DNA of 64,000 nucleotides from Ignavibacteriota bacterium (GCA_963736195.1 CAVTNP010000001.1:690133-754132); one strand, 5' to 3'. Counted from the stretch's first letter, positions 29,270-44,802 are shown. A program made the numbers and translations. Notes: generated from the sequence alone by a model not told the origin.

Positions 29270-30292
29270 CTACCATTGGAAACCAAGCGTGGCTTCCAAT
29301 CCAATCGAACCTAAAGGTGATGTGGCCGGTGAAAATAGCTGTTCCGCGCGAGCAGACATATCGAGCGTAAGTCCATTCGCAAATCGGTATTCAATACCGG
29401 CAGCTTCCGAGGAAAGGAATCCTACCGTGCTCGCACCTGCAACAATCTCCGCGCACGGAGATAACACATCATTCGGATTCAGGTCGAAGCGGTAGCCAAC
29501 ATCAAGCGAGTTTACTAATGATGTTGATGCCGACGCTGTTTGAGAAGGACTTCCAAGGGTAAGTTGTGTTGGCAATCCACCGACAGTAACCGTGGTATCG
29601 CGAGGCATGACAGATTGGGCGGCGTGATTCACGGTAAAAGAACTGCGCCGCAATTCCACAACGAACGAGGATGAGCCAAAAATGTGATACCGCACTCCCG
29701 CTGCGCCAAAGATAGAACTTGTGGAATAGCTATTGCCCGGGAGCAAAGCTCCACCAGCTACAAATGCACTCCAACGGTTAGCTGTCATCTCGTTCTGACC
29801 AGATACTTGGGTTAAAATTGTGGGATCAGAAGGAGCAGCAACGGGGGTCGCGATCGATTGTATATTCGATTGCGTCGAGGATTTTTTTCCCGATATATTC
29901 TGCGGAGCGGGAATCGTATTTTGTGTTTCACTAGAGTTATCTGTAACGCCAGTTTCTAAAGCTTCACCTTGCATTGCAGTGTTCTTTGCAGCGTTTGTTG
30001 CAACATTCACAGTTAAATGGGAAGGATCGGTCGCTTGGGATGCATCCGTCGCATACGACCCATGCAGGGCTTGCGTATTCGGCAACGATTCATTCACAAG
30101 GAAATGACTACCCATGAAAAGTCCAATACCTGCGAGCAATACCACACCGGCAGCATAATGAAAAAAGACTGCGAACGCCGATCTGCGGCGCGTATCGTGG
30201 TTCATCACAAGCGCGCGCATCTCGCCGAACGGGTAATAGGATGGCGTAGCATTTAGCGATCGGATGTAGGTTTGGTATGAGTCAGAGCGCAT
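29270..30292 (-). CDS. Anti-sigma-like single-pass membrane protein with S/T/Q-rich periplasmic linker and C-terminal outer-membrane beta-barrel domain
   Basis: It lies immediately downstream of the ECF sigma gene and overlaps it. The order is a short cytoplasmic N-terminus, a TM helix AFAVFFHYAAGVVLLAGIGLFMG, about 120 low-complexity residues, then about 175 aa of alternating amphipathic strands ending ...LGFQW. The track ORF start at 30394 overlaps the sigma gene by 112 nt, so 30292 (MRSDSYQ...) was chosen instead. Confidence 0.55.
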   Translation of the reverse strand: MRSDSYQTYIRSLNATPSYYPFGEMRALVMNHDTRRRSAFAVFFHYAAGVVLLAGIGLFMGSHFLVNESLPNTQALHGSYATDASQATDPSHLTVNVATNAAKNTAMQGEALETGVTDNSSETQNTIPAPQNISGKKSSTQSNIQSIATPVAAPSDPTILTQVSGQNEMTANRWSAFVAGGALLPGNSYSTSSIFGAAGVRYHIFGSSSFVVELRRSSFTVNHAAQSVMPRDTTVTVGGLPTQLTLGSPSQTASASTSLVNSLDVGYRFDLNPNDVLSPCAEIVAGASTVGFLSSEAAGIEYRFANGLTLDMSARAEQLFSPATSPLGSIGLEATLGFQW

Positions 30293-30875
30293 AATTTTCG
30301 ATTGCCTCCATGAGAATAACATTCTTCTCAGCATGTTGCCCGAGTTGATCTGAGTTCTTTTCTTTGTTACTAATTTCTTCGGGTTCGATCCCAAGCATTT
30401 TTTTCAGCATTTCGCGGCCGCGTCGTAATCTGCTTTTCACGCCGCTCAGTGTGCCACCTTGAATTGCACGAATTTCTTCGAGCGAAAGATCTGCAATATC
30501 GAATAGTAAAATGGTTTCCTTCATCTTTGCCGGCAGTCGGTCGACCACAGTCATTACTATTGCAATTTCCGCTGCGACATCCGGCATTGCGTTTAGATCG
30601 AGGATCGATTCCAGCGTGCTTGATTCAACAATCGTAAATCGTTGATCGCGGCGATGCCAGCGTTTGTACGTTCTTGCTACGATACGATAGAGAAATCCAG
30701 GGAACCCAGATTCATCGCGGTTAAAATCGAACCGTTCGAGCGCAACAAGAACTGCCTCGCTGACGAGATCTCTTGCCTGCTCCAGGTCGTGCGTCATGGC
30801 AAGCGCATATCGCAAAAGCCGAGGATAGACCGGCTCCAGCAGTGCAAGAAATCGTTCTTTGTGCGCGTTTTCCAT
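30282..30875 (-). CDS. ECF-subfamily RNA polymerase sigma-70 factor
   Basis: Sigma-70 region 2 (LVSEAVLVALERF...FLYRIVARTYKRWHRR) and region 4 (LSLEEIRAIQGGTLSGVKSRLRRGREMLKKML). It is a paralog of 44995-45633. Confidence 0.85.
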   Translation of the reverse strand: MENAHKERFLALLEPVYPRLLRYALAMTHDLEQARDLVSEAVLVALERFDFNRDESGFPGFLYRIVARTYKRWHRRDQRFTIVESSTLESILDLNAMPDVAAEIAIVMTVVDRLPAKMKETILLFDIADLSLEEIRAIQGGTLSGVKSRLRRGREMLKKMLGIEPEEISNKEKNSDQLGQHAEKNVILMEAIENYAL

Positions 30876-30882
30876 GAGTATT

Positions 30883-30912
30883 CCCCCTCCTAAAGAAGGA
30901 GGGGGCTTTTTT
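30883..30912. promoter_or_regulatory. GC hairpin CCCCCTCC-TAAAGAA-GGAGGGGG in the 35-nt gap between the upstream lipoprotein gene and the ECF sigma gene; on the mRNA strand it sequesters the Shine-Dalgarno GGAGG of the sigma gene
   Basis: Read on the minus strand: UAA-AAAAGCCCCCUCCUUCUUUAGGAGGGGGAAUACUC-AUG. The 3' stem half contains GGAGG, 7 nt before the ATG. A near-identical hairpin occurs at 33489-33516. Confidence 0.45.
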
Positions 30913-31891
30913 ATGGTACTACATATTTGATCCTCACAGCATTTGGCCCGAAGGGCGTGGTCAGGAAATGCTGATATTGCCCGCCGATCACCGGAAGCCC
31001 AGTCATATTCGAATGTCCGACGGCATAGACGTACACCGCCTGTCCCGCCGGCAGCGAATAGGGCATGAGCGTGGCAACGTCCATCGTGAGCGTATCCTTA
31101 AAATTCCCGCCGATCATTTTCGGCGATTGAAAGCCGGAATGATATGCGTCATTGGTTAACTCCGTTGCAAGCCATGCATCCTCCGTGCTATCTGGGGATT
31201 GCGCGCTTGGAGACGCGGGAAACAGCCCGCTATCGAGCGAAGTATAAACATAGATATTACCCGGCGCGAGCGTGCCCGTAACTTTCCCGCTCAGGATCAT
31301 TCCGTTGGAACTTCCAGCCGTATCGTAAATGACCACTTCAGAATCATGCGTGGTGACGGTCGTATCGAGTTTGCCGAGGCTATCTTTGATCGTACTGTCG
31401 ATGACAGTTATGATCTTCGTCTGGCTGACATTGAACACGTAGGATACGCCCGTCATGGTGATGGTATCGGTCGATTCCTGGACAAGGTAGGCATCATTGA
31501 TAATATCAGTTCCCACTCCAATGATATGATGCACCGGATAGATCATGGAATCGAATCCCGGCTTCCAGAAAATGATATTATACACTCCGGCGGGAATGTT
31601 ATCGATCTCGAAATGGCCGCCGGTATCTGCAGTTGCCTGATACGGCGTTCCCTGAATCGAGATTTGAATACCCGTTGGCGAAAGCCCCGTTGGCGCACCG
31701 GACGCATACGCCGCAACCGTTCCCTCCAGCTTTTCGCCGTTGCTGGTCGCCGCCGGAGGGTCAGAAGGGCTGGAGCAGCTTGAAAAAACCATTGCAAAAA
31801 TGGCGAAAAGGAGTCCGTATAGGCGGACTCCTTTATCGCTGTAGCGGCGCGGTTCCCGCGCCAGCCCCATGTTGCAAATTCCTGAGATCAT
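30911..31891 (-). CDS. Hypothetical lipoprotein with carboxypeptidase-regulatory-like (CarbopepD_reg) beta-sandwich domain
   Basis: Lipobox ...FAMVFSSCSS. GGHFEIDNIPAGVYNIIFWKPGF is the classic CarbopepD_reg motif. Confidence 0.55.
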   Translation of the reverse strand: MISGICNMGLAREPRRYSDKGVRLYGLLFAIFAMVFSSCSSPSDPPAATSNGEKLEGTVAAYASGAPTGLSPTGIQISIQGTPYQATADTGGHFEIDNIPAGVYNIIFWKPGFDSMIYPVHHIIGVGTDIINDAYLVQESTDTITMTGVSYVFNVSQTKIITVIDSTIKDSLGKLDTTVTTHDSEVVIYDTAGSSNGMILSGKVTGTLAPGNIYVYTSLDSGLFPASPSAQSPDSTEDAWLATELTNDAYHSGFQSPKMIGGNFKDTLTMDVATLMPYSLPAGQAVYVYAVGHSNMTGLPVIGGQYQHFLTTPFGPNAVRIKYVVP

Positions 31892-31936
31892 TCGTCCGGC
31901 AGAGGGCGGGGGGACCCCGCCACTACAGTTAATATG

Positions 31937-33316
31937 TCATTCCTTCACGATCTTCTTCGTTGTTACACTATTGCCAGAAGCAATTCGGATATAATACGTT
32001 CCGGGCGTGACATTCGAGAGATCGAGCGTAAGGTTCGTATTGCCTCGCGAATTCTCGGTTTTCACCGATTCGCCGAGCACATTCATCACCATTACATTCG
32101 AGCCCATCGGAATGTTTTGCAGTGTGACGACGCCATTCGTTGGATTGGGCGATAGTTCGATCTGAGAGACCGGCTCCGTTGGTGCGACCGATTCATTATC
32201 GTTGATGTGCATGATGGAGTTCGGTGGGGCTTGAGAATAATCGAAGGTGAGTGAATCACATTCAAACTCATTCTGTATCTCGCTTGGCTGATTCGGCTTC
32301 GGAGGCACGCTTGCACCTGCTGCATAGATGATAACATTGCCCCCATCGTCATAACCTTCCCCAGGCACACACGCGGCACCCGGCTTCAAGTAAATCAAGT
32401 CGCCCTCGCTCGCCACGACAGTAGCACCGGCCTCGGCGAAGAAAGTGTCTCTCGACTCGGACCACGCTGTCACCGTGACGCCAGGATTGACCCAATAGGT
32501 GCCAGGACTGTAGATCCTTCCATTCGAATCGAGACTATATATCGTAACACTCGAATCGAGCACGACCGCAGAGCGAGGAACCACCGGAGGAGAGCAATCG
32601 AACACATAAATTGTGTCGTACGCCATTCTCATACAACCGGTGGCAGTGTTGACTTCTCGGACGCTCACATACTTATAGCCTCCCGTCGAGTACGAAATGG
32701 GTGGCACAATGGTGTCCTCGTAGATGGTCACCGCATAAGCTCCCATCGCGGTAGCAGGCGTAGCATCTGCGCCAAAATCGCAAAAGACGCTGTCTATGGT
32801 CGGTGGCGGCGAGGGCATAAAATATATCCCACCCGAGAGTGGGGCACCCAAGAACGGAACCCCAATAAATCCAATATTAGCACGACCAAAGTTAAGGCGA
32901 AATCCAAATTCTGGCGCATTCGGATAATAACCAACAACGATATTACTTCCATTATCAGCACTTGTAATGTAAGGATTTGCACCTATTACACGGATGCGGT
33001 AATGTGCGGACCCTAATGCTGTTTTTGGAATAGCTGTCACAAGCGTAAACGTGCCCGGCAGAGAATCAATGAATGAGCCGATATTGCTGAAATCATTATT
33101 ATTGAAGCTTCCAGAAGTATCCAATAGTTGCACTGTAAAGGCATTTGCATGACCCCACGTCCCCGTTGCGGTAAATGTAACAGAGAATGGATCACCCAAG
33201 CAAAATGTGGTTCCGGATATTGAGTCTAACGTTATCGTTTGAGCGCAGGGAGCTCTTGGCTCTGCAAGCAGCACAACCGCGCAAAAGACCGCAAGAAAAG
33301 TACTGATTTTTTTCAT
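31937..33316 (-). CDS. Secreted protein of unknown function with T9SS C-terminal sorting domain (paralog family member 3)
   Basis: Signal peptide MKKISTFLAVFCAVVLLA. It shares the N-terminal QTITLDSISGTTFCLGD and CDSLTFDYSQ blocks with 4979-6193 and 6248-7444. C-terminal sorting tail ...GTYYIRIASGNSVTTKKIVKE. The track ORF extends to 33388. Confidence 0.7.
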   Translation of the reverse strand: MKKISTFLAVFCAVVLLAEPRAPCAQTITLDSISGTTFCLGDPFSVTFTATGTWGHANAFTVQLLDTSGSFNNNDFSNIGSFIDSLPGTFTLVTAIPKTALGSAHYRIRVIGANPYITSADNGSNIVVGYYPNAPEFGFRLNFGRANIGFIGVPFLGAPLSGGIYFMPSPPPTIDSVFCDFGADATPATAMGAYAVTIYEDTIVPPISYSTGGYKYVSVREVNTATGCMRMAYDTIYVFDCSPPVVPRSAVVLDSSVTIYSLDSNGRIYSPGTYWVNPGVTVTAWSESRDTFFAEAGATVVASEGDLIYLKPGAACVPGEGYDDGGNVIIYAAGASVPPKPNQPSEIQNEFECDSLTFDYSQAPPNSIMHINDNESVAPTEPVSQIELSPNPTNGVVTLQNIPMGSNVMVMNVLGESVKTENSRGNTNLTLDLSNVTPGTYYIRIASGNSVTTKKIVKE

Positions 33317-33636
33317 AGCCGAATTTAAGTAAAAAAGTGAACAAAAATGGTTTGTTTCCAATGCCGCAGAGTTTCCGGAAATCCCCACACGTATAACTTG
33401 CCGGAAGCCGGGTAGAAAGTTTCTGGGAGGGGTAAAATTATTTGGGTGAAGAAGTAACGCAAGACAAAACAGAGTTCACTGAATTACACCCCCTCCTTCT
33501 TTAGGAGGGGCTTTTTCAGTGGACTCCATATAATTGACGCAACTTTCAGCATTCTAAAGTGTTCTTTAGATACGAGCTTTTCAGATTGACTCGTTTCGGG
33601 GCAGTTCATGAAAAGTCTGCTAAGGTCGATAATTAT

Positions 33637-33666
33637 TCATAATTATTTTTTGTAACCCGAGCGACC
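33637..33666 (+). promoter_or_regulatory. Second copy of the conserved 30-bp motif ATAATTATTTTTTGTAACCCGAGCGACC upstream of a T9SS cargo gene
   Basis: Near-identical to the reverse complement of 7499-7528. It lies 40-100 nt upstream of the Kelch-repeat gene. Confidence 0.3.
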
Positions 33667-33766
33667 CAGCGCGTTTTAAATAGTGTAGAGACTTCTGACT
33701 TGATAAATGGGGCAAGCGAATATGGGCGCTTACCGCGGTGTTCAATCTCCCATAATACTCAAAATC

Positions 33767-35245
33767 ATGAAAATTCGTATCGCCGTCATTAGCTTAATAA
33801 TGTGTCTCGGAGCGAACCTACGTGCCCAGACCTGGCAATTTACCGGATCCCTGAATACGGAGCGCCGGTTGGAAACCATTAACGTGCTCCAAAATGGGAA
33901 AGTCCTCGTTACCGGCGGGGATGATATGGAGGGGAATGCGCTCGCCTCCTGCGAGATCTACGATCCGGCAACCGCCTCATGGAGCTACGCTGCATCGATG
34001 CAATTTCCAAGAGAGCGGCATACCTCCAACGAACTTTCGGATGGCCGAATCGTGATCATCGGGGGAAATACCAACAATATCAACGAATGGATTGCGACGC
34101 CAAGCATCGAAATTTACGATCCATCGACGGATACCTGGACACCCGGCGGCTCGATGTATGTTCCGCGCGAAAATCACACTTCTACCCTTATCAATGACAG
34201 CATGATTTTGATCAGCGGGGGACTTACCGGCCAAGAAGGAAACTGGCAGGTTCTTACTGAGTGTGAGATCTATAATGTAAATTCACTTCAGTGCACCGTT
34301 ACGGGGTCAATGTCCCAACTTCGGCATGACCATGCCGCTGCTTTACTCTCCGATGGGACGGTTCTTGTTGCTGGTGGACGAACCGGCGGCGCTGGAAGCG
34401 ACTATTTGGCAGAGTGCGAGATCTTCAATCCGTCTTCAGGAACCTGGGCGATTGCTCCACCGATGCCAGAGGCTCGCATTGCGCCGATCACCGCTGTCTT
34501 TTCCGATAACTCCGTTCTGATCGCGGGTGGACGTAAAGACGATAACGATGCCGCCGAGGCAGCGGACGTTTACAGTCCCGGCGCTCCAGCCTGGACGGCA
34601 GTCCAGAATATTTTGGTGCCCTCGACGTGGCAGGGAGGTACGGTATTACCGGGTGACCGTCTGCTCATGACCGGAGGTATCATCGGTGGCGATTGGTCCG
34701 ATCCATCTGGTCAGAGCCCAGTCAATACTCCTACCTGCGAGTGGTACGATAAGCCGAACCAGCAATGGTACTATGCTCCGACGATGAATGAGCCACGCGC
34801 AGAGCATGGAGCAGTTACCTTTACTCAAACTGTCAATTCGGGCCTGCCGACGCAACTGGTACTCGTCGTTGGCGGGATCATCGGTGTTGCAACTGTAACC
34901 AATACATGCGAAGTGCTCGATGTTGGTTCAGGCGCGATCGCAAACTACATTGCACATCAGGAGAGCATCGAGTCAGCGGTCGCTCCAGCAAATGCTCCGG
35001 CAAATATGCTAACTATTAGCTACACGAACAATGGACCGGCGCTCGATCTCGTGCTTGCTGCCAGCGAAAATGTGACAACTGAGCTCGTTTCGATCGATGG
35101 CCGAGTGGTCTTCAACATGGATGAGCAGCTTGCCGGTGGCGAACATGTTCTCAATCTTCCTTCCAGTTTGGCCTCCGGGATGTACCTGGTTCGCGTGAAC
35201 GCGGGCGGGAACGTAATGACTTCGAAGATACAGATCACCCAGTGA
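33767..35245 (+). CDS. Kelch-repeat beta-propeller protein with T9SS C-terminal sorting domain
   Basis: Signal peptide MKIRIAVISLIMCLGANLRAQ. There are about 6 Kelch-like repeats (VLVTGG..., IVIIGGN..., ILISGG..., VLVAGGR..., VLIAGGR..., LLMTGG...). C-terminal sorting tail ...GMYLVRVNAGGNVMTSKIQITQ. Confidence 0.75.
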   Translation: MKIRIAVISLIMCLGANLRAQTWQFTGSLNTERRLETINVLQNGKVLVTGGDDMEGNALASCEIYDPATASWSYAASMQFPRERHTSNELSDGRIVIIGGNTNNINEWIATPSIEIYDPSTDTWTPGGSMYVPRENHTSTLINDSMILISGGLTGQEGNWQVLTECEIYNVNSLQCTVTGSMSQLRHDHAAALLSDGTVLVAGGRTGGAGSDYLAECEIFNPSSGTWAIAPPMPEARIAPITAVFSDNSVLIAGGRKDDNDAAEAADVYSPGAPAWTAVQNILVPSTWQGGTVLPGDRLLMTGGIIGGDWSDPSGQSPVNTPTCEWYDKPNQQWYYAPTMNEPRAEHGAVTFTQTVNSGLPTQLVLVVGGIIGVATVTNTCEVLDVGSGAIANYIAHQESIESAVAPANAPANMLTISYTNNGPALDLVLAASENVTTELVSIDGRVVFNMDEQLAGGEHVLNLPSSLASGMYLVRVNAGGNVMTSKIQITQ

Positions 35246-35277
35246 GTTTCTGTTGAAATAAATAAGAATTGGCCTTG

Positions 35278-35312
35278 AAAGGGGAGGACGTGTTCCTCCC
35301 CTTTCTGTTATT
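35278..35312 (+). terminator. Rho-independent terminator (GGGGAGGAcgtgtTCCTCCCC + TTTCTGTTATT)
   Basis: A GC hairpin followed by a T-rich tract directly after the Kelch gene stop. It marks the left edge of an AT-rich island. Confidence 0.65.
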
Positions 35313-35366
35313 ATGTATTTTGGCGATTATATACTTTGCTCAACCGACAGAAGGGGGTGTTGATAA

Positions 35367-35570
35367 TTGAGTATCACTGAGTGGCTTGGCTTCAGCTTCT
35401 TTCTGCTGTTCCTTTTTCTTCTCGTATGGCTTAATTTGGCTTTCCTCTACTGGGCTATTAAGGCGGTGTTTTACGGAGATTATGCTGAGGAATTTGCTGA
35501 ATCTCTCTCTGAGGTCATAATAACGGGACTTGAAGCGACCATACTTGGTAGTATAAGTGGGACGCAATAA
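35367..35570 (+). CDS. Possible small membrane protein (67 aa, TTG start)
   Basis: Strong SD AAGGGGG 9 nt upstream of TTG. It has a single hydrophobic helix and an acidic C-terminus. The overlapping minus-strand ORF 35340..35633 is an alternative, so coding status is uncertain. Confidence 0.3.
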   Translation: MSITEWLGFSFFLLFLFLLVWLNLAFLYWAIKAVFYGDYAEEFAESLSEVIITGLEATILGSISGTQ

Positions 35571-36000
35571 AATGGTATAATAATTTCGATCATACTGACG
35601 CTTTTCAGTATAGCGGTAATAATCCTTTGCCATGCCGTGATACTCAATATTTATCCAGCATTTAATTTACTGTTTTTCCTCATTATCCGTACTCTAAAAA
35701 TCACGAAGCACGTCATTGTTTTCCTTAGGAATTTCAAGTGGAACATCGGTTTTCATTTGAGGCGCAATCGTAATGGTTCCAAGGTTCCATTCGAAGAGGA
35801 CAAGGCTCAGTTTGAGCGTTTCGAATCGCTCCTCGAAAAATTCGTCTCCGCTCCCTCCGACAAGGTAAAGGGAATACTCAAAAAGGAGAAGAAGCTAAAA
35901 ACGCGCAAAATTCGCCCCAAATGAAGCTTTTTTAACGGCTCAAAAGATTGTGCAAAATTGTTTCGTATATTTGTAGCGTCATTTTGCTGGCGGCGACACT

Positions 36001-36699
36001 ATGGCAGACAATACTATCCGATTCAGACAAATCCCCGAAGACGCTCTTCGCGCTTTCGAGGATTTGTTTGTTATGGGGGAACCATTGTTTGAGCAACTTG
36101 ACGGTGCTATTGATGCGGCTCCGAAGAAAGTCAAAGCATCTGCCGTCGTAGCTTATCTTGCGAAGAAAGTTCAGATACCACTTGAATCGCTTTCGGCGTT
36201 AATTGGTTCCCTACAAGGACTTCTTGGCGCAATGGATTCTTACCATGTAACTGCCGCGCAAGCCAGCAAGGATGTTGTTGAAACCTCTCTTAAGCTATCA
36301 AAAACGGAGAAGCTGATAGCCTCTGATTCTCCCAAATACGAGCAAAGACTTCTTAGCCTCTTATCGAAACCTCAACTTGTTTTACCGTCAAAGGCGTTAA
36401 GTTTATTGAACGATCATGCACGAGTATTTGGCAATGTGCGAATAATATCTGATGTTAGACCCGTGTTTGGTGAAGACACAAGTGCCCCTCCCCATGCTTG
36501 GATGCTCTATCATACCTTACACTTTAGATGCAATCTTGGCAAAGAGGTAGAGGATGATATTTTTATTGCCCTTGATACCGCTGATCTTCGCGCCCTTGAA
36601 CATGCTGTTGCTCGCGCAACCAGTAAACAAAAAGTTTTGATCTCGCAATTTAAGCAGCTTAAATTGGATTACGTAACTCCTGACGAGGTGGAGGCTTAA
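36001..36699 (+). CDS. Hypothetical protein, first gene of a three-gene cassette in an AT-rich island
   Basis: 232-aa ORF with no recognizable motifs. Its stop (TAA) is 1 nt before the next ATG (TAAAATG). Confidence 0.5.
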   Translation: MADNTIRFRQIPEDALRAFEDLFVMGEPLFEQLDGAIDAAPKKVKASAVVAYLAKKVQIPLESLSALIGSLQGLLGAMDSYHVTAAQASKDVVETSLKLSKTEKLIASDSPKYEQRLLSLLSKPQLVLPSKALSLLNDHARVFGNVRIISDVRPVFGEDTSAPPHAWMLYHTLHFRCNLGKEVEDDIFIALDTADLRALEHAVARATSKQKVLISQFKQLKLDYVTPDEVEA

Positions 36700-36700
36700 A

Positions 36701-37201
36701 ATGTTAGAGCCAATCTTCATTCCAACACGGCATTTGAGAGGACGCTGGGAGGTCTCTCGTAATAACTTCGAAGTTGAGCCATTAAAGCGAGAGATTCCTT
36801 TCGATGGATTGCTTTGGGTCGCCTTTTCTAAATGTGAAATTGATTTAGAAGTTGAAAGTAAATTTAAAAGCTTACAGAGGAGTCTCTTAGATGAAACAGC
36901 GGGAACATCCCACTTTAGGGATATTCTTATGAGTCAGTATTACCGATGGATGATTCGCTTAAGCGAGCCGCTAATTCCTATCTTGCTCCGCGAAATTTTA
37001 CTTGACCCCTCTCCGATCTGGGTTTCTCTTTTGAGGGACGTAGCAGGACTTGACCCCGTTCCCTCTGAAGAGAGAAGCGATTACACGAAAGTGGTGTTGC
37101 GCTGGCGCGATTGGGGACTTATTGAAGGATATTTACGTGACGAACGAAACAGTCCCTCTTCGGCTGAAAGTTGGCTTGGGCCTCTTACATCCGTTAACTG
37201 A
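36701..37201 (+). CDS. Hypothetical protein, second gene of the cassette
   Basis: 166-aa ORF, translationally coupled to the upstream and downstream genes. No recognizable motifs. Confidence 0.5.
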   Translation: MLEPIFIPTRHLRGRWEVSRNNFEVEPLKREIPFDGLLWVAFSKCEIDLEVESKFKSLQRSLLDETAGTSHFRDILMSQYYRWMIRLSEPLIPILLREILLDPSPIWVSLLRDVAGLDPVPSEERSDYTKVVLRWRDWGLIEGYLRDERNSPSSAESWLGPLTSVN

Positions 37202-37658
37202 TGACAACCATTCTCCTTGTAGTCCCGCCGATGCTGCGTATAATTGCTTTGCTTGGGCAGCGGGAATCACCCATGTCAACTGGGGGCCATATCCTGATTA
37301 TGGCTTCACTTGGCCAGAAGACTTGCCGAGAGATGAAAAGGAATCAACCTATATCGCCCTTTTTGAAAAGGAGCGGTTTGTAGTTTGCGAAAACGGAGAA
37401 CCTGAGTCTGGTTATCAAAAAATAGCCCTTTTCGTAAAAGACGGATTTGTAGAACATGCGGCGAGGTTGCTCGAAAGCGGCGATTGGGCAAGTAAGCTTG
37501 GATTTGAGCATCTTGACATTATTCATACTTCTGTTGATGTCGTTGCAGGAAGTAGGTATGGCATTCCTAAGATTTATATGAAGCGCGAAAGAACAGAGTC
37601 CGACCCAGAGGCGCCCTCTATTGCCAAATTCCCGCCGAACCCACTTAGTAGCCGATAA
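37050..37658 (+). CDS. Hypothetical protein with a candidate Cys/His active-site pattern (AAYNCFAWAAG ... H), third gene of the cassette
   Basis: The ORF as listed in the track. The true start is probably an internal TTG/ATG around 37160-37200, overlapping the previous stop. The motif SPCSPADAAYNCFAWAAGITH loosely resembles papain-like/NlpC-P60-type cysteine hydrolases. This is inference only. Confidence 0.4.
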   Translation: MTPFPLKREAITRKWCCAGAIGDLLKDIYVTNETVPLRLKVGLGLLHPLTDDNHSPCSPADAAYNCFAWAAGITHVNWGPYPDYGFTWPEDLPRDEKESTYIALFEKERFVVCENGEPESGYQKIALFVKDGFVEHAARLLESGDWASKLGFEHLDIIHTSVDVVAGSRYGIPKIYMKRERTESDPEAPSIAKFPPNPLSSR

Positions 37659-37815
37659 TTACTGGTTGAGCGAGGTATATAATCGACTATATTTTCGGTG
37701 CCATTTACGGCACCAAATTGATCCCGTGGGTTGTTCATAGGTTCGGACTTATCTACCGGAACTGGTGTTCCACCCGAACAACCCCACAACATTTTCATTG
37801 GAAAGCACTTTTACT

Positions 37816-38904
37816 ATGCAAGATACAGCAACGAGAGACGCGCGGAAGAAAGCACTCACTATCGCGATGGACGCGATCGAGAAGAACCACGGCAAGGGAT
37901 CGGTCATGCGTTTGGGCGATCAGCCGCATGTGAAAGTGGATGTGATCCCGACCGGCTCGCTTTCCATCGATGCTGCGATCGGCATTGGCGGCGTACCACG
38001 CGGCCGCGTGATCGAGATCTTTGGGCCGGAATCCTCCGGCAAAACCACGCTGTGCCTGCATATCATCGCGGAAGCGCAAAAACGCGGTGGCAACGCAGCA
38101 TTTATCGATGCCGAACATGCGCTGGACGTGAATTACTCGAAGCGTCTCGGCGTGAACGTGGATGAGCTTATTCTTTCTCAGCCCGAATTTGGCGAGCAGG
38201 CACTGGATATTCTGGAGCAGCTCGTGCGATCCGCTGCGCTTGATGTTATCGTTGTCGATTCCGTTGCCGCGCTTACGCCTCGCGCAGAAATTGAAGGCGA
38301 AATGGGCGATGCGCAGATGGGATCTCATGCCCGGCTTATGTCGCAGGCCATGCGGAAAATTACGGCCGTTATTGGCAAATCCGGCACGACGGTTATTTTC
38401 ACGAATCAGCTTCGCTCGAAGATCGGCGTGATGTATGGCAATCCGGAAACCACCACCGGTGGAAACGCGCTGAAATTTTACGCATCGGTGCGCTTGGATA
38501 TTCGCCGACGTGATGTCATTAAAGAAGGCACGGAAATCATCGGAAATCGCGTACGCGTGAAAGTGGTGAAAAACAAGCTTGCACCGCCCTTCCGCGAAGT
38601 GGAGTTCGACGTGCTCTATAACGAAGGCATCTCGAAAATGGGTGACATGATAGACGTTGGTATCGAGAACGACATCATTCAGAAATCTGGCTCGTGGTTC
38701 TCCTTCGAAGGCGAGCGCATCGGCCAGGGCCGCGAATCCGTCAAGGCATTCCTGAAAGAAAATGCCGATTCCTTCGCGAAAGTCGAAAAAGCAGTGCGAA
38801 AGAAACTGGGCATCGAGATCGAGGGAATCGCTGGTAACTTGGCGACCAATGGCGCTGTCGCGGCGGGAGGGGTGATCGAGGAGAAGTCCAATAGGAGGAA
38901 ATAA
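37816..38904 (+). CDS. recA: Recombinase RecA
   Basis: Walker [11 protein letters not shown]1/L2 loop blocks, and near-complete RecA conservation. The ATG at 37816 is preferred over the track start at 37765. Confidence 0.95.
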
Positions 38905-39416
38905 TGACCACAATAGAATACAACGAAAAACAGACTATTAACGAACTGATGCGTGTCATTAATCACGCAGAAGGAACACCGATTAATGAGCTTCGCATTA
39001 TTGACCTTGCCGAATGCGGAAGCGGAATTTACATCTTTTATCAGCAACAGGCAAATAAGCGGTGGTATTTTTACATTGGGAAGGCATCCAGTGAGAGCTT
39101 GGTTCAAAGGATTGCGATTCATTTTGATACAAGGATTGAGATGGCATCGAGCGGGATTCTAAGCAAGGTTCAGCGTTCAGAAGCTATCGCCGATCAATCT
39201 GCATTCTCGCTTATCGACGCAATTCGACTCTTGGAAAAGAAAAATACGAGACTGATTTTCATTACTATTTCACCGTTGCAAGAGTGCAAACGGGTCGTGA
39301 CAAAATTGGAATACTTCCTCATAAATGCTTATGACACTCCAAAGGTGTATAACGTGCGGAGGGGTAAAGCAGCTCCCTCACTCGACATTCCACTCAAAGA
39401 ATTGATTCCTAACTAA
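38904..39416 (+). CDS. GIY-YIG nuclease-domain protein, translationally coupled to recA
   Basis: GIYIFY...(9)...YFYIGKA, then a conserved Arg (LVQRIAIHF) and downstream Glu/Asn (KLEYFLINAY), as in UvrC/I-TevI-type GIY-YIG domains. Its ATG overlaps the recA stop (ATAATGA). The region is AT-rich. Confidence 0.7.
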   Translation: MTTIEYNEKQTINELMRVINHAEGTPINELRIIDLAECGSGIYIFYQQQANKRWYFYIGKASSESLVQRIAIHFDTRIEMASSGILSKVQRSEAIADQSAFSLIDAIRLLEKKNTRLIFITISPLQECKRVVTKLEYFLINAYDTPKVYNVRRGKAAPSLDIPLKELIPN

Positions 39417-39417
39417 A

Positions 39418-39837
39418 ATGCAATCAGCCATGATTACGAATTATTCGAATTGCAACAAAAGGGCGCGCTCATTCGATTTAATTATCGAGTCTTTCTGTCT
39501 ATTGGCACTAATTACCCTCACTTCGGGATGTGTGGGTAAAAACGATGGAGGAATAAGAGGCGTCTTTATCTGCCAGAACCCTGACAAGAGCGGCCTTCCT
39601 ATGTCTAATCTTGAATTCAGGAGCGACGACATTGTCGCATTTTTGCCGCTTTTACCAGACGGAAGCACGACGCCAATGAATTATAAAATTGAGGGGAATT
39701 TTATCTACTTAAAACCGATACCTGGAATTGTAACTCCGATGGTGGTGGATCTGTTGACAACCCTTAAAATCGTCAGTGACACCAGTATAGAAGAGGATGT
39801 TCAGAGCAACCCTTATGTGTGGGTGAAGAAGCAATAG
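39418..39837 (+). CDS. Hypothetical lipoprotein
   Basis: Hydrophobic N-terminus with lipobox LTSGCVGK. No recognizable motifs. Confidence 0.4.
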   Translation: MQSAMITNYSNCNKRARSFDLIIESFCLLALITLTSGCVGKNDGGIRGVFICQNPDKSGLPMSNLEFRSDDIVAFLPLLPDGSTTPMNYKIEGNFIYLKPIPGIVTPMVVDLLTTLKIVSDTSIEEDVQSNPYVWVKKQ

Positions 39838-39866
39838 TTAAAGAATCTCAAGAAAAGATGCTACAA

Positions 39867-39905
39867 CGCAAAGTACATGCTTGCTGTTATGGGGCCGACG
39901 ATCAA
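39867..39905 (+). pseudogene. Remnant 3' end of a fourth copy of the tandem lipoprotein family (..YMLAVMGPTINK*)
   Basis: The 39-nt tract translates to a peptide near-identical to the C-terminus of the following paralog (..ISMLAVMGPSVNR*). No N-terminal portion is present. Confidence 0.4.
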
Positions 39906-39937
39906 TAAGTAAATTTTCAAGATTGGAGGATTTGAAA

Positions 39938-40324
39938 ATGCTTCGAGCATTGCTGTTTATTATTATTGCATTCACGCTTTCCGCGTGTGGGGCCTCGAAA
40001 TACACCCCGTATTCCAAATGGTCGTTGCCCGCGCATGGCTATTCGGAAGCCCAACTTGATTCGACGACCTATCAGGTGAGTTATGTCGATCCTTCTGCCG
40101 ATGTATCGGATCGTTTTGCTCTTTACCGTGCAGCGGAGCTAACCAAGCAGCGTGGCTTCGATTATTTCATTGTTGCTGATACCCAGCCCAGTTCCACTGA
40201 TGACGATTTGTCGAAAGTCACTAAGACGGTTCGTATGTATAAAGGAGATGCTCCTGCCGATAACCCGCAGGCCTACAACGCAATCTCCATGTTAGCTGTT
40301 ATGGGGCCGTCGGTGAATAGATAG
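39938..40324 (+). CDS. Lipoprotein, tandem paralog A (GYSE..LDSTTYQV...RYALYRAAELT.QRGFDYF family)
   Basis: Lipobox LSACGAS. The conserved core is shared with the next two genes. Confidence 0.6.
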   Translation: MLRALLFIIIAFTLSACGASKYTPYSKWSLPAHGYSEAQLDSTTYQVSYVDPSADVSDRFALYRAAELTKQRGFDYFIVADTQPSSTDDDLSKVTKTVRMYKGDAPADNPQAYNAISMLAVMGPSVNR

Positions 40325-40367
40325 AAATTAACCGCGCGATGTTTCGCGCATAGAAGGAGATGAATTC

Positions 40368-40766
40368 ATGATATCGATCCGATTAACTGCTTCGTGCATT
40401 GCGTTACTGCTTCTTTCCGCGTGTGCAACGCCCTACGTTAAGAATGCCGGTGGGCTGTTTAGTGGCACCGGCTATCAGGATATTCCGATCGATTCTACAA
40501 CGTACCGTGTAGTGTTTTACGGAAGTCATGGTGGCACCAGCCTGGAATTGGTTGATCGCTACGCGTTCTATCGTGCTGCAGAGCTTACCGCCGAAAAAGG
40601 GTATGATTATTTTGTGATCGTGCAAACCGGGGCGGACGAAAAACAGCGCATTGCGTGGAATACCGTTCGCATGTCGAGGGTTCCGCCAACGAGCGAGGAT
40701 TTTGCCGTGTTCGACGCACAAACCGTGCTACGGGAAATGGCGCCTTACGTTCAACGATCGGAGTAA
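40368..40766 (+). CDS. Lipoprotein, tandem paralog B
   Basis: Lipobox LLSACAT. Conserved DSTTYRVVF...RYAFYRAAELTAEKGYDYF. Confidence 0.6.
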   Translation: MISIRLTASCIALLLLSACATPYVKNAGGLFSGTGYQDIPIDSTTYRVVFYGSHGGTSLELVDRYAFYRAAELTAEKGYDYFVIVQTGADEKQRIAWNTVRMSRVPPTSEDFAVFDAQTVLREMAPYVQRSE

Positions 40767-40847
40767 GGAGCGAATGAACTAGATCTGCTGTTTTAGGATT
40801 AAATTTCTGTAGCTTCGATTTCTTAAAAATACCTTCACCCTATTTCC

Positions 40848-41378
40848 ATGAAAAACCATAAGAGCGCAACGATCCTTATTGGAATTGGAATTTTGTTTTT
40901 AGCTTCGTGCGCAACGAAATACGCGCCGGCCACCGGCTCGTTCTGGGACGGCCATACCGGCTACTCCGAGGTAGCGCTTGATAGCACTACCTGGCAGGTT
41001 ACCTTCTGCGGCAATAATAACACTTCGGATGATGTCGTGAACCGCTACGCGTTGTACCGTTCGGCGGAACTTACTTCTCAGCGAGGCTTCGATTACTTCG
41101 TTGTGCTTGATAATAATGACGTCGCAGCGCTGACTTCGACCGTGAATCGTAACAAGACTCAGCAGACCCAGATAGAACACACCGTCGATCCGCAAACAGG
41201 CAAAGTGATCCCTGTGGCAGTTACGACTACTAACTCGACATCAACGGTCAACACGCAAGCGGCACACACCGTGACGAAAACCATTCGTATGTTCACGGGC
41301 GCGCGGCCTGCGGATAATCCCAACGCTTTCGATGCCAGATCCATGGTTACGATGATGGCGCCGAGCATTCAACGCTAA
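40848..41378 (+). CDS. Lipoprotein, tandem paralog C (with T/N-rich insertion)
   Basis: Lipobox FLASCAT. Conserved DSTTWQVTF...RYALYRSAELTSQRGFDYF. Confidence 0.6.
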   Translation: MKNHKSATILIGIGILFLASCATKYAPATGSFWDGHTGYSEVALDSTTWQVTFCGNNNTSDDVVNRYALYRSAELTSQRGFDYFVVLDNNDVAALTSTVNRNKTQQTQIEHTVDPQTGKVIPVAVTTTNSTSTVNTQAAHTVTKTIRMFTGARPADNPNAFDARSMVTMMAPSIQR

Positions 41379-41399: not shown

Positions 41400-42044
41400 A
41401 TGGAAGGCCGCATCACCTCGATCGTCCGTCAAAAGAACGACAAGGCTCGCGCTTCGATCTTTTTGGATGAAGAATTTGCGTTCGGGGTGTGCGATCAGAC
41501 GGTCGAGCAATTCCGCCTTCGCAAAGGCGATTACATCGATCGTGAGTTATTCGAAAAGATCACGGAGTTCGATCTATTCATCGAAGCGAAGCGCGTTGCG
41601 CTGGCATATCTAAACTATCGCGCCCGCAGCGAGAAAGAGATTCGTGAGCGATTGCAGAAGGAAGACATTCCAGAGCCAATTATTCTTCGAACCTTCGAGT
41701 TCCTGCGAGAATACAAACTGATCGATGATGAGGCGTGGTCAAAATCCTTCGTAAATGATAAACTGGTAAGGAAATCTGTGTCATCGAAGCAGTTGGCGTA
41801 TGGCCTGGCGCAAAAAGGGGTGTCGAAGGAAGTGATCGAAGAAACGATCTCGAATTTGAATGCAAATGAGAGTGATGAGTCCCGTGCCATACGCGCTGCC
41901 GAAAAGCGCTGGCCACGAATCCTGAAATCCGAGAGCGACCCCCGAAAGCAAAAACAAAAGTTGTACACGTTTTTGGCCGGAAGAGGGTTTGATTATGACG
42001 TGATCAACCAAGTGATCGCAAAAATTATGAATGATGAATTATGA
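41400..42044 (+). CDS. recX: RecA regulator RecX
   Basis: Three-repeat helical architecture with typical blocks (ALAYLNYRARSEKEIRERL, AWSKSFVNDKL, LAYGLAQKGV). Confidence 0.8.
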   Translation: MEGRITSIVRQKNDKARASIFLDEEFAFGVCDQTVEQFRLRKGDYIDRELFEKITEFDLFIEAKRVALAYLNYRARSEKEIRERLQKEDIPEPIILRTFEFLREYKLIDDEAWSKSFVNDKLVRKSVSSKQLAYGLAQKGVSKEVIEETISNLNANESDESRAIRAAEKRWPRILKSESDPRKQKQKLYTFLAGRGFDYDVINQVIAKIMNDEL

Positions 42045-42096
42045 AAGATGAAATATCTTCCTCTGATTCATCATTCATAATTCATAATTCATAATT
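42022..42096. repeat. AT-rich imperfect inverted repeat made of ATTCATA/TATGAAT heptamers, spanning the recX stop and the recX-ybbR gap
   Basis: AAATTATGAATGATGAATTATGAAAGATGAA ... TTCATCATTCATAATTCATAATTCATAATTT. The architecture matches the nuoB/nuoA element. Confidence 0.55.
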
Positions 42097-42101
42097 TCCT
42101 C

Positions 42102-43055
42102 ATGACCCTCGCTCGCGGCATCCTGATTTTCCTCGGCGCACTGATCTTTTCTGTGCTGCTGTGGGCGTATGTGCGGCTTTCAGCAGCGTATGAGGCGGAT
42201 GTCGATCTGCCGGTCAAGCTTACTGCGCCGAAAGGATATGCGCTCGCTTCCGGCGTTCCCGAACGATTGCACACACGCGTGCGCGGCGCGGGCTGGCAGA
42301 TACTTCTGATGGGTTTTACCAAGAATGCGAATTTCCAATTCGATCTTTCCGAACGTGCGTTGCCGCCCGAGGAACTTGTAACGCTGCACTCGGACGAGAT
42401 CGCGAATTCAGCCGTACTCCCAAGTGAACTGCGCGTGCTGAAAGTGGAACCGGATTCTCTTGAACTACAATTTGCCAGGGCCATCGAAAAACGAATCAGC
42501 ATACAACCGCGGCTTGACGTGCGCCCGGCCCGGGGCTATGTTATCGTTGGTGACCCGGTGGTGACACCGCGCACGGTATCCGTAGTTGGTGCTTCCGATG
42601 TGGTTGATTCCTTGAACGGGATTTCGACTCAGTCCTTCCGGGTGACCGATGCGAAGGAAGATGTGGATCGAGTGCTGTTGTTATCCGATTCGCTCGATAA
42701 TTTTATTACCATACCAAATGCGCCGAAAGTTACCGTTCACGTCGCGGTGCAAGCGATCGGCGAACAACGAATTTCCGGAGTTCCAGTAGTTATCGATGCG
42801 CTGCCGCCTCAATTTGAGCTGCTCCTCATTCCAGGAACGATCGCTGTTACGATTCGAGGAGGCGCGGAGGAGCTGGCGAAGCTTCAGCCTTCTGTGATCC
42901 ATGCGCGAGTGTTGTATAACCCCACGATGCTGGATACTGCAACGTCCGTTACGCCACAGATAGAAGTTCCAAGGGGATTGACATATCTCTCTTCCGATCC
43001 TCCCAGTGTAAAGTTCATTCTCCGGCGAAGGGGGGCGGATCATGGGACTCCGTGA
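42102..43055 (+). CDS. YbbR-like domain protein (CdaR-type)
   Basis: N-terminal TM helix followed by repeated YbbR-like beta modules. Confidence 0.55.
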   Translation: MTLARGILIFLGALIFSVLLWAYVRLSAAYEADVDLPVKLTAPKGYALASGVPERLHTRVRGAGWQILLMGFTKNANFQFDLSERALPPEELVTLHSDEIANSAVLPSELRVLKVEPDSLELQFARAIEKRISIQPRLDVRPARGYVIVGDPVVTPRTVSVVGASDVVDSLNGISTQSFRVTDAKEDVDRVLLLSDSLDNFITIPNAPKVTVHVAVQAIGEQRISGVPVVIDALPPQFELLLIPGTIAVTIRGGAEELAKLQPSVIHARVLYNPTMLDTATSVTPQIEVPRGLTYLSSDPPSVKFILRRRGADHGTP

Positions 43056-44802
43056 TGCTTCGTTCGTCGTAGTTGATGTCGAAACAACCGGCCTGAACGC
43101 TGCCCAGCATCGCATTACGGAGATCGCTCTGGTGCGGGTGCAACAGGGAGCGATCACGGAATCCTATACCACGCTTATCAACCCCGAGCAGTTCATTCCG
43201 CCGTTCATCACGCAGCACACGGGAATTACGAACGCGATGGTGTACGACAAACCGCGCTTTCGCGAGGTTCTTCCAGAGATAGAGAAGTTCATCAAAAAAT
43301 CCGATCTGCCGGTGCTGGTTGGGCATAACGTGAAGTTCGATCATGGGTTTCTGATCGAGTCTTTCAAACGCGCGGGACAAGAATTCCAACATGCCCAAGG
43401 CCCGCTATGCACCTGCCGGCTTGCGCGCAGATTACTACCACAGCTTGGAAGTAAATCACTCAAAAGCGTACAGGATTATTTAGGAATTAAGAACCCGCGC
43501 CAGCATCGCGCGCTTGGGGATGCGCAGGCTACGGCAAAGATCCTGCTGCATTTCTTATCGATGGCAGAGGGATTGGAGATCGAGACGATCGAAGATCTGA
43601 TCCGCCTGCAATTTGCCAAACCCAATTACGCTCGCCGTAAAACTAAGCGCGAGGTTTCGCTTCGTGAAAAAGTACGAATGTTCCCAGACCGTCCTGGAGT
43701 CTATACGATGACGAGCCGAGGTGGTGAAGTGCTTTATGTTGGCAAGGCGAAGAGCCTTCACGAGCGCGTGGCTTCTTATTTTACCCAATCGCATACGGAG
43801 GGCACGAAGCTAACCCGCATGATGCGGGCCGTGCAGGATATTACCTACGAAGAAACAGGCAGCGAGCTTTCTGCATTGCTATTGGAGAGCCGAAAGATCA
43901 AGGAACTGAACCCACGCTTTAACTCGCTCGATCGCAGGTATAAGCCGCAGAGTTTTATCCGGCTGGACGTGCAGAACGATTTTCCGGAACTATCGTTCAG
44001 CCGCGAACCGGCGCCGGATGGGGCCGAATATTTCGGGCCGTTCCGCTCGCGCGAGGCGGCGGAATCGTTGATGGAAATCCTGAACCATGCTTTCAAACTT
44101 CGCGAATGCGGCGACAAATTCAAGATCGGCGCTGATGTAAGGCCGTGTCTGTATTTTGAGATCGACCGGTGCGGAGCGCCGTGCGCGCTCTTGCAATCCA
44201 AGCAATCCTATCGTGATGAAGTGAGGCGCTTGCAGGAATTCCTCGCCGCAGGTGATGACGGAGTTCTTGCTCACGTCGAACAGCTCATGCGCGATGCCTC
44301 CGACAAACTCGATTTCGAAGAAGCTCAGTTTTACAAAGTCCGGCTCTTCGAACTGCGCCGTGTACTTGGCACGGGCGATCGGCCATCGGCAAGCCTCAGC
44401 GCAAACGATTTTGTGCTTTTAAACCCCCTCAATGCCTCGGAGTGTGAGGTCTATTTTGTGAGATTCGGCCAACTCATGAAGCAAATGGTTCTCGGCGTGG
44501 GACACCTGCCCATCGCCGAACAATGGTTCGCGCGTCAGCTTCGCATGTATTACGGTGCAACATCCTCGTTGCCTCCCTCGGCTGGAAAACCAGAGATCGA
44601 TGAGATGCGCATTCTTTCGAGGTGGGTCGAGACAAGCAAGAAAAAGGGGAGCAGAATAATCTATATCGAGCAGGATTGGGAAGACTCAGTAACGAAAGTG
44701 GTAGCAGAATTGAGAACGATGCTTGGGGAGTCACAAAAGGAACTATCGCAAGCCCAATCACGCCAACGCAAACTTTTGTTGAAACCGATGAAAACTGTCT
44801 GA
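43042..44802 (+). CDS. DnaQ-like 3'-5' exonuclease fused to a GIY-YIG (UvrC N-terminal-like) nuclease domain
   Basis: DEDDh motifs (FVVVDVETTGL, HNVKFDHGFL, H..LGDA) followed by GIY-YIG (GVYTMTSRGGEVLYVGKAKSLHERVASYF). A Cys cluster follows. Confidence 0.8.
   Translation: MGLRDASFVVVDVETTGLNAAQHRITEIALVRVQQGAITESYTTLINPEQFIPPFITQHTGITNAMVYDKPRFREVLPEIEKFIKKSDLPVLVGHNVKFDHGFLIESFKRAGQEFQHAQGPLCTCRLARRLLPQLGSKSLKSVQDYLGIKNPRQHRALGDAQATAKILLHFLSMAEGLEIETIEDLIRLQFAKPNYARRKTKREVSLREKVRMFPDRPGVYTMTSRGGEVLYVGKAKSLHERVASYFTQSHTEGTKLTRMMRAVQDITYEETGSELSALLLESRKIKELNPRFNSLDRRYKPQSFIRLDVQNDFPELSFSREPAPDGAEYFGPFRSREAAESLMEILNHAFKLRECGDKFKIGADVRPCLYFEIDRCGAPCALLQSKQSYRDEVRRLQEFLAAGDDGVLAHVEQLMRDASDKLDFEEAQFYKVRLFELRRVLGTGDRPSASLSANDFVLLNPLNASECEVYFVRFGQLMKQMVLGVGHLPIAEQWFARQLRMYYGATSSLPPSAGKPEIDEMRILSRWVETSKKKGSRIIYIEQDWEDSVTKVVAELRTMLGESQKELSQAQSRQRKLLLKPMKTV

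Follow-up and report, generated by a model that had tools for sequence, protein, structure and literature searches.

A stand-alone UvrC-like GIY-YIG nuclease gene in a variable segment between recA and recX of an Ignavibacteriota bacterium

The locus

The 64,000-nucleotide (nt) stretch of DNA analysed here, hereafter the window, is from an Ignavibacteriota bacterium (GCA_963736195.1, CAVTNP010000001.1:690133-754132). In it recA and recX are separated by 2.5 kb, which carry a gene for a stand-alone, UvrC-like GIY-YIG nuclease of 170 amino acids (aa), a small lipoprotein gene and three tandem lipoprotein paralogues, designated a, b and c (Table 1). A reading made from the sequence alone had placed all of these genes, and recA and recX themselves, exactly where we find them, and had described the interval as a homing-endonuclease-like insertion. 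We favour a different interpretation, namely that the nuclease gene is cargo exchanged by recombination in a slot behind recA.

That recX normally lies directly behind recA, the premise of the sequence-only reading, is borne out for relatives: recX starts no more than about 120 nt after recA in approximately 32 of 80 species-representative recA loci that were fetched, and these comprise nearly every locus with an Ignavibacteria or Bacteroidota label. The start of the window recA was set at 37816, to which the starts in relatives correspond, and a longer GTG-initiated open reading frame (ORF) from 37765 was rejected. For paralogue a, the ATG at 39938 replaces the TTG that opens the longest ORF. 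All three paralogues have a lipobox cysteine after a hydrophobic N-terminus and pass the curated cut-off of 40 bits for NF047637, the NCBIfam model of the CC0125/CC1285 family lipoproteins; the small lipoprotein matched no Pfam family. The GC content of the nuclease gene is 42.1% and that of the small lipoprotein gene 42.9%, compared to 50.3% for the window, 54.5% for recA and 49.5-52% for the paralogues, in agreement with the earlier description of the nuclease gene as AT-rich.

Table 1. Features at and around the recA-recX interval, numbered from the first nucleotide of the window
Feature	Position	Strand	Details
Three-ORF block directly 5' of recA	36001-37658	+	43-47% GC
Palindrome	37697-37714	+	GGTGCCATTTACGGCACC, GGTGCC-N6-GGCACC; approximately 100 nt 5' of recA
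recA	37816-38904	+	Pfam RecA, E=6.6e-134
Variable cassette (nuclease and small lipoprotein genes)	38887-39860	+	blastn breakpoints 38886 and 39861
Putative coupling junction	38893-38906	+	AGGAGG 38893-38898, recA TAA 38902-38904, nuclease ATG 38904-38906
Stand-alone UvrC-like GIY-YIG nuclease gene	38904-39416	+	170 aa; unnamed family
Small lipoprotein gene	39430-39837 (ORF opens 39418)	+	135 aa from Met5; lipobox LTSGC
Remnant of a fourth CC0125-family lipoprotein gene	39859-39912	+	last 17 codons and stop; aligns with L002
CC0125/CC1285-family lipoprotein paralogue a	39938-40324	+	128 aa; lipobox LSAC; NF047637 E=2e-21, 77.2 bits
CC0125/CC1285-family lipoprotein paralogue b	40368-40766	+	132 aa; lipobox LSAC; NF047637 E=2.1e-24, 86.9 bits
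CC0125/CC1285-family lipoprotein paralogue c	40848-41378	+	176 aa; lipobox LASC; NF047637 E=9.8e-33, 114 bits
recX	41400-42044	+	Pfam RecX_HTH1, HTH2, HTH3; 82-85% identical to relatives
Near-perfect AT-rich hairpin spanning the recX stop	42022-42097	+	minimum free energy -29.9 kcal/mol, z -5.89
DEDD-exonuclease/UvrC-like GIY-YIG fusion	43042-44802	+	586 aa; NF005906, 507.7 bits

The 170-aa protein and its family

As a single sequence the 170-aa protein is difficult to place. Its best Pfam match is GIY_YIG_2 (PF20815) with E=0.072 and 13.5 bits against a cut-off of 22.4, and PF01541 is not matched. Since these scores fall under every Pfam cut-off, the 'bona fide' GIY-YIG core announced by the sequence-only reading is not established from one sequence. 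A word-indexed search of 5.8 billion proteins retrieved only the query itself. Exhaustive searching of 1.84 billion cluster representatives with phmmer gave 32 relatives, and a profile search gave at least 156 family proteins of 145-190 aa, all annotated 'hypothetical', from Bacteria and Archaea; the taxa include Aenigmarchaeota, Nitrososphaerota, Dehalococcoidales, Pyrinomonadaceae, Sterolibacterium and Nitrosomonas. A protein of 1971 aa (P0005) was excluded from the family alignment; the query matches it at three distinct places (72 bits), of which the one at the extreme C-terminus (1916-1953) scores best.

At the level of the family the picture is clear. The predicted catalytic positions are G41-I-Y43, Y57-I-G59-K60, R69, H73, E136 and N150. 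Seven of these residues, G41, Y43, Y57, G59, R69, H73 and E136, are invariant in a 31-sequence family alignment, and N150 is invariant among the six closest homologues. PF01541 is matched by 16 of the 31 members and PF20815 by 11 (E<0.01); the sole match to any other Pfam family among them is to Gpi1. Searched against the PDB, the family profile finds the UvrC N-terminal GIY-YIG domain (E=1e-4), with the GvYif...YVGKa and E...N blocks aligned and E136 and N150 placed on UvrC E76 and N88. An AF2 model computed on the family alignment (pLDDT 91.7, pTM 0.87) displays the GIY-YIG alpha/beta fold. A beta-hairpin, the adjacent strands of which (41-49 and 52-61) carry the GIY and YIG motifs, is followed by a helix (66-73) bearing R69 and H73, a strand (115-121) and a second helix (125-142); additional to this core are a strand and a pair of helices at the N-terminus (residues 3-36) and an insert that is likewise of two helices (85-112). 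In a Foldseek search of the PDB with this model the leading hits are to GIY-YIG domains of UvrC (probability 0.77), and the defence nuclease 9u75/CMoRE is in sixth place; against viral models a GIY-YIG protein of a crAss-like phage comes first (probability 0.99). The invariant residues, the profile and the model together indicate that the GIY-YIG catalytic core is real, and in this respect the original claim stands for the family. Scans with NCBIfam (uvrC, Cho and DEDD-UvrC) and with PHROGs produced motif-level matches only, with no assignment to a family.

UvrC and Cho N-terminal GIY-YIG domains (PF01541; PDB codes 1YCZ and 1YD0-6) are the best match to the 170-aa protein in both sequence and structure, having in common with it the GvYiF...YVGKa, R-x3-H/Y and E...N motifs and an identical set of catalytic residues. 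The differences are architectural. The 170-aa protein comprises the catalytic domain with an N-terminal extension of about 40 aa and a two-helix insert of about 35 aa between the Arg/His helix and beta-3. It lacks the Cys-rich, UvrB-binding, EndoV-like and HhH domains of UvrC, its matches to UvrC and Cho being confined to their N-terminal domains, and, unlike UvrC, is not conserved in the lineage. UvrC-like paralogues without the C-terminal domains are known from the UvrC/HEase supercluster, an example being the 'Bacillus-II' subfamily with an N-terminal extension only (Dunin-Horkawicz et al. 2006, PMC1564403). Likened by description rather than by sequence, that subfamily belongs to the same architecture class as the 170-aa family, but it occurs in other taxa and linkage to recA is not reported for it.

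By Pfam, no NUMOD, zinc-finger or helix-turn-helix (HTH) module is present in the 170-aa protein or in 31 relatives, and the protein ends only 20 residues past N150. On the comparisons made here the family is UvrC-like and not I-TevI-like, and it is unnamed. With its catalytic residues intact, the protein appears to be an active nuclease.

The recA-recX interval in relatives

Comparison was made between the window and five relatives (L088, L082/83/84, L002, L097 and L098), for which RecA is 92-98% identical in aa and recA 84-89% in nt sequence. A profile built on a 6-sequence alignment located three metagenome loci. L088 is a short contig that does not wholly cover the interval.

The genes behind recA differ in every case. 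In the window the order is nuclease (170 aa), small lipoprotein, a 17-codon remnant of what we term paralogue 1, and paralogues a, b and c. L088 has a nuclease (176 aa) and the small lipoprotein, and L082/83/84 a nuclease (174 aa), a homologue of the small lipoprotein, a 277-aa ORF and paralogue c. In L002 an interrupted DUF4160 with DUF2442 is followed by a paralogue 1 without signal peptide and by paralogues 2, 3 and 4, whilst L097 carries two ORFs of 67 and 124 aa without family, an intact paralogue 1, paralogue 2 and paralogue c. The slot in L098 is empty; an orthologue of paralogue b lies 15 nt past the recA stop, and paralogue c is next. The nuclease gene is therefore present in three of the six genomes, on each occasion with the small lipoprotein gene, and the locus shows presence/absence polymorphism with a natural empty allele. 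Beyond the clade of the window, no member of the nuclease family was found at the recA locus in 79 other recA loci.

Pairwise homology is lost at approximately 38886, where the similarity of RecA to all five relatives stops after ...VIEEK, and is regained at 39861 in the lipoprotein array. Between these two points the window resembles none of the GIY-free genomes (L002, L097, L098) in DNA sequence. This comparison resolves the 2.5-kb insert into two layers, a clade-wide lipoprotein array of unstable copy number and a cargo slot of about 1 kb directly behind recA. The sequence-only reading was thus right that there is extra DNA between recA and recX, and wrong in attributing it to one event, since on the alignments the array is older and the cassette a separate event. 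It was also right in regarding the nuclease gene as a non-core element of the insertion type: occupancy of three genomes in six is incongruent with phylogeny, the GC content is low, a paralogue has been cut to 17 codons, and conservation behind recA throughout the lineage with host-like composition, for which related loci were compared, is not what is found.

The truncated paralogue marks the right-hand end of the cassette. Of the 16 residues compared, 15 in the remnant are those of the C-terminus of L002 paralogue 1 (CC1); the remnant also matches L097, in which the intact orthologue ends ...AYNAKSMLAVMGPTINK. Judged by this alignment, the arrival of the cassette in the window deleted approximately 115 codons of paralogue 1. 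The remnant and the 3' end of paralogue a form an 83% direct repeat. Paralogue c is the only paralogue present wherever the interval is covered (window, L002, L082, L097 and L098), with orthologues 72-84% identical, and paralogue b has orthologues in L098 (o145, 75%) and L002 (CC2, 50-54%). Paralogue a shares its 5' end, which encodes the signal peptide, with L002 paralogue 2 (window 39861-39993, L002 10205-10335), and its body is closest to L097 paralogue 1 (48.5%; window 40035-40319, L097 5234-5503). Such a mosaic points to exchange between the tandem copies, whether by gene conversion or by unequal crossing-over.

No significant remnant of the GIY-YIG or small lipoprotein gene was detected by tblastn in the GIY-free loci. 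An identical 10-mer, ACAATAGAAT, occurs shortly past the recA stop in the window (38910-38919, nuclease codons 3-5) and in L002 (9199-9208). As the GIY-free loci hold no nuclease remnant, it is treated as unexplained or due to chance; the idea that it is the footprint of a lost nuclease gene was not adopted, there being no further remnant in L002. In the same part of L002 (9189-9385) the DUF4160 frame is preceded by a short ORF, MSYARD and a stop codon; DUF4160 looks 5'-truncated or interrupted and DUF2442 is intact.

Divergence and exchange of the cassette

Nuclease alleles share 51% aa identity between the window and L088, 43.5% between the window and L082, and 69% between L088 and L082. In the first pair nt identity is 90.9% over the final 331 nt of recA and 74% over the small lipoprotein genes (pS 0.35), whereas synonymous sites in the intervening nuclease genes are saturated (pS 0.79) and DNA similarity is left only in the catalytic-motif block and the last 25 codons or so. 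Since the divergence affects both kinds of site, synonymous and non-synonymous, replacement of the allele is indicated and not rapid evolution of the protein in place. The small lipoprotein of the window has its homologues directly 3' of the nuclease genes of L088 (61% identity) and L082 (33-35%). L088 is accordingly a mosaic, in which an L082-like nuclease gene sits beside a window-like lipoprotein gene.

Selection has maintained the nuclease gene, the dN/dS of 0.19 between the L088 and L082 alleles indicating a constraint that is looser than that on recA (0.03-0.05) or recX (0.06). The small lipoprotein gene, with a dN/dS of about 0.5 against L088, is under relaxed constraint. Occupancy does not follow phylogeny because the window recA groups with those of the GIY-free genomes L002, L097 and L098 (87-89% nt identity) and it is the GIY-positive L082 that is the outlier (84%).

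Could the gene nonetheless be a long-standing resident? A minimal nuclease of the Cho/SLX1 type, ancestral, secondarily lost and of benefit to the host in recombination or repair, would be co-regulated with RecA and RecX. This would explain why the gene lies at the same place and points the same way behind recA in three genomes, the most divergent (L082) included, and it is consistent with purifying selection, with UvrC/Cho N-terminal domains as the closest sequence relatives and with the coupled expression predicted below. It sits uneasily with the lack of the gene in half of these close relatives and in the 79 recA loci beyond the clade, with a window allele that is xenologous, showing saturated synonymous divergence between conserved flanks, and with a GC content eight points under the window mean. 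Family members elsewhere are unlinked to repair genes, and the genome already possesses a DEDD-exonuclease/UvrC-like GIY-YIG fusion 1 kb downstream. We consider a resident repair function improbable.

The lipoprotein gene raises a second question, whether it and the nuclease gene constitute a two-component toxin/immunity or abortive-infection pair. In each of the three GIY-positive genomes the two are neighbours separated by 1-15 nt, and in other strains the slot carries pairs resembling toxin-antitoxin (TA) modules. The putative partner, however, has a signal peptide and lipobox, and export would separate it from a nuclease that is cytoplasmic; recombination has affected the two genes independently, the partner evolves under the relaxed constraint noted above, and family members in other genomes have no conserved partner. 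Export and independent recombination in particular make such a pair very improbable, and we return to exchanged cargo, with the lipoprotein gene as a companion, as the preferred explanation.

The junction with recA and expression of the nuclease gene

The stop codon of recA and the start codon of the nuclease gene have one base in common, within ATAATGA (38901-38907), as the sequence-only reading had reported. The last five RecA codons (S-N-R-R-K) are unlike those of the relatives, and they contain AGGAGG, a putative Shine-Dalgarno sequence placed 5 nt before the nuclease ATG. The left junction is not the same in all alleles. In the window the overlap is fused into the last codons of recA, whereas L082 and L088 retain about 20 nt of the post-recA sequence of the empty L098 allele and have a 39-nt spacer with a GGAG of their own.

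Scans of the + strand gave no terminator-like site between recA and the nuclease gene, and none that is convincing before recX; a generic sigma-70 and terminator scan gave no excess over the shuffled expectation. The hairpin that spans the recX stop was matched by none of 200 shuffles in folding energy. Its stem, of approximately 34 bp, consists of AUGAAU/AUUCAU repeat units, an unusual structure. An Rfam scan of 35-45 kb returned nothing above gathering score, the hairpin giving spurious sub-threshold matches to miRNA precursors. It is probably a terminator and the likeliest end of a recA-to-recX transcription unit. Given the anatomy of the overlap and the lack of a terminator ahead of this hairpin, the simplest reading is that the nuclease gene is transcribed together with recA from the promoter of the latter and is coupled to it in translation, and to this extent, at the level of sequence, the coupling proposed earlier is supported.

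Upstream of recA the only conserved stretch contains the palindrome listed in Table 1. It is kept in L002, and in L082 its arms co-vary (GTGCT...AGCAC); GGTGCC-N6-GGCACC has no other exact match in the window, and the fold by itself is non-significant (z -1.66). The palindrome could be a repressor operator or a hairpin in the 5' untranslated region or leader. DNA-damage control of the recA-linked nuclease is advanced here as a hypothesis.

The family elsewhere and comparison with known systems

Where are other members of the family found? They are solitary genes at unrelated loci. In a BrnT/HicB islet one lies 19 nt past the gene for a HicB-like antitoxin, another has MazE/PemK and HigB modules as neighbours close to the rplQ operon, and a third is behind a DUF2283 gene and two terminator-like hairpins; others lie 62 nt past an aminotransferase gene and 20 nt past a radical-SAM gene. 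A conserved partner gene common to the family was sought and rejected, the downstream gene being a membrane protein, a Phd-like ORF, an ankyrin protein or none at all. In several contexts the product of the gene 3' of the family member is exported or membrane-bound, namely a signal-peptide protein (L085 1063-1233), a secreted ankyrin-repeat protein (L086 2574-3731) and a transmembrane protein (L095 7556-7954), and in the window it is a lipoprotein; the cases are too few for a pattern. Relatives of the nuclease were not found in phage and plasmid collections by tblastn, nor in IMG/VR viral contigs with the 6-sequence alignment profile. In the literature, papers on GIY-YIG proteins together with recA or recX that were found concern plant organelles and general repair only.

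These contexts bear upon the homing endonuclease proposed in the sequence-only reading. A free-standing homing enzyme would cut an allele devoid of the cassette close to where recA ends, and RecA-dependent repair from an occupied copy would bring in the gene with the lipoprotein gene hitch-hiking. Several observations are as this model would have them. The gene is sporadic at one fixed locus by a highly conserved gene, and L098 supplies the empty allele; the flanks are mosaic, as co-conversion predicts, and the GC content is low. The family is patchy over Bacteria and Archaea, often 20-60 nt behind conserved genes (recA, aminotransferase, radical-SAM), and can be assigned to the supercluster of UvrC and HEases (Dunin-Horkawicz et al. 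2006, PMC1564403). T4 Seg and I-TevI-type enzymes have the same GIY-YIG core, the intergenic position beside conserved genes and the sporadic occurrence among relatives. They differ from the window gene in being borne by phages, introns or inteins where this gene is chromosomal, and in domain structure, since the NUMOD, zinc-finger and HTH modules that bind DNA and typify GIY-YIG homing enzymes (PMC1564403) are missing here. The alleles at the window locus are deeply diverged (43-69% identity), purifying selection extends across dS >1 and there are no recent near-identical copies. With an unfixed left junction and a co-travelling lipoprotein gene the mobile unit is more than the nuclease gene; the viral and plasmid searches were negative and other family members reside in TA islets. 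The label is not upheld by these data, and we regard homing as unlikely, if deserving of consideration.

A related and more speculative proposal sees in the family a new class of GIY-YIG nucleases, minimal and chromosomal, that serve homing or 'addiction' and settle behind bacterial and archaeal genes that are conserved, at their 3' ends. Those linked to recA would be expressed by way of its damage-inducible transcript and ribosomes, and RecA gene conversion would carry them into empty alleles. We think this quite improbable. If true, a selfish element would be wired into the enzyme that propagates it.

The exchanged cargo that we prefer has precedents among defence genes. Single-gene GIY-YIG defence nucleases include PD-T4-3/CMoRE (PMC12923530) and PD-lambda-1 and Uzume (bioRxiv 10.1101/2024.10.26.620412). 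Like the window gene they are solitary, patchy in distribution and located in variable islets, and the nuclease domain of CMoRE is also most similar to UvrC (PMC12923530). The 170-aa protein has GIYIFY in place of GIYxY, is some 80 residues shorter than CMoRE and does not carry its C-terminal domain for the sensing of modifications. On its sequence it fails the membership tests of the catalogued GIY-YIG defence genes. The slot itself resembles defence-island hotspots in its conserved flanks, interchangeable TA or defence cargo, empty allele and mosaic recombination. It is unusual in being tiny (0-1.7 kb), in beginning in the last codons of recA and in lying inside the recA-recX operon, as a result of which the cargo would inherit recA expression.

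A model for the recA slot

Three questions should be addressed in assessing the nuclease gene. How did it come to lie at the recA stop codon? How is it expressed? What does it do? The explanation that we favour, to which we assign a probability of approximately 55%, is that it is accessory cargo exchanged by recombination, encoding an active stand-alone GIY-YIG nuclease that would be expressed along with the recA operon and whose part is most likely in genetic conflict.

In this Ignavibacteriota clade a slot would open at the last codons of recA, with cargo that differs by strain. Recombination in the conserved sequence on either side, at the 3' end of recA and in the lipoprotein array or recX, would swap this cargo. 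The cassette entering the window would have rewritten the last recA codons and removed most of one lipoprotein paralogue. The nuclease gene, left without a promoter of its own, would be transcribed from that of recA and translated by reinitiation at the TAATG overlap or by ribosomes recruited to AGGAGG, such that the level of nuclease would track the level of RecA. The enzyme is predicted to nick or cut DNA by the standard one-metal GIY-YIG mechanism, with E136 and N150 holding the metal and Y43, Y57, R69 and H73 acting on the phosphate. The role in conflict would most likely be restriction of foreign DNA or self-maintenance, an assignment made by analogy.

Several points weigh against this explanation. 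PADLOC returned no significant match for the window protein and its closest homologues, only motif-level scores (UzuA and PDC-S14, E of approximately 0.001-0.05), and the 170-aa protein has no sensor or specificity domain that would explain the sparing of self DNA. The presence of the cassette in L082, the most divergent genome, means that it may go far back in the clade, with three losses since, in which case a dispensable function of benefit to the host fits equally well. The tight linkage to recA in three genomes could also reflect a functional tie to recombination.

What is new here is an uncharacterised family within the well-known GIY-YIG superfamily, in a variable islet that is ordinary apart from its address, the recA stop codon. 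The recA-recX operon is usually seen as compact and conserved, and yet it can host a cargo slot, the genes in which would inherit recA expression. The locus also constitutes a natural experiment, with occupied, differently occupied and empty alleles in near-identical backgrounds. Should the protein be a defence enzyme, it would be a very small new single-gene defence system; were it a homing enzyme, it would count among the rare free-standing homing endonucleases of bacterial chromosomes; otherwise it is just another accessory nuclease of a TA-type islet.

Neighbouring features

The DEDD-exonuclease/UvrC-like fusion gene is two genes past recX. It has 14 nt in common with the YbbR-like gene before it and is kept in L002, L097 and L098. 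The profile of the small-nuclease family matches it weakly (E of approximately 1e-5). Conservation of the fusion indicates that the genome has a second, core GIY-YIG enzyme nearby.

Upstream of recA, too, the content varies. Of the three ORFs in the block directly 5' of recA, two (232 and 166 aa) have no family and one (202 aa) matches DUF7689. The block is missing in the relatives; at this position L002 has a BrnT/CopG antitoxin and a nucleotidyltransferase, L097 HepT and a nucleotidyltransferase, and L098 DUF4926. With variable content on both sides, recA appears to be bracketed by two small landing pads for selfish modules of the TA type.

The interval from cmk to recA measures approximately 8.7 kb in the window (28964-37689) and 1.7 kb in L002. 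It encodes an extracytoplasmic function (ECF) sigma factor, an overlapping 374-aa ORF, a 326-aa CarboxypepD_reg-like protein and two proteins with type IX secretion system (T9SS) sorting tails, one of 483 aa and the other a Kelch-repeat protein of 512 aa. A second indel, at 24239-27391, encodes a 1050-aa Ig-repeat T9SS protein.

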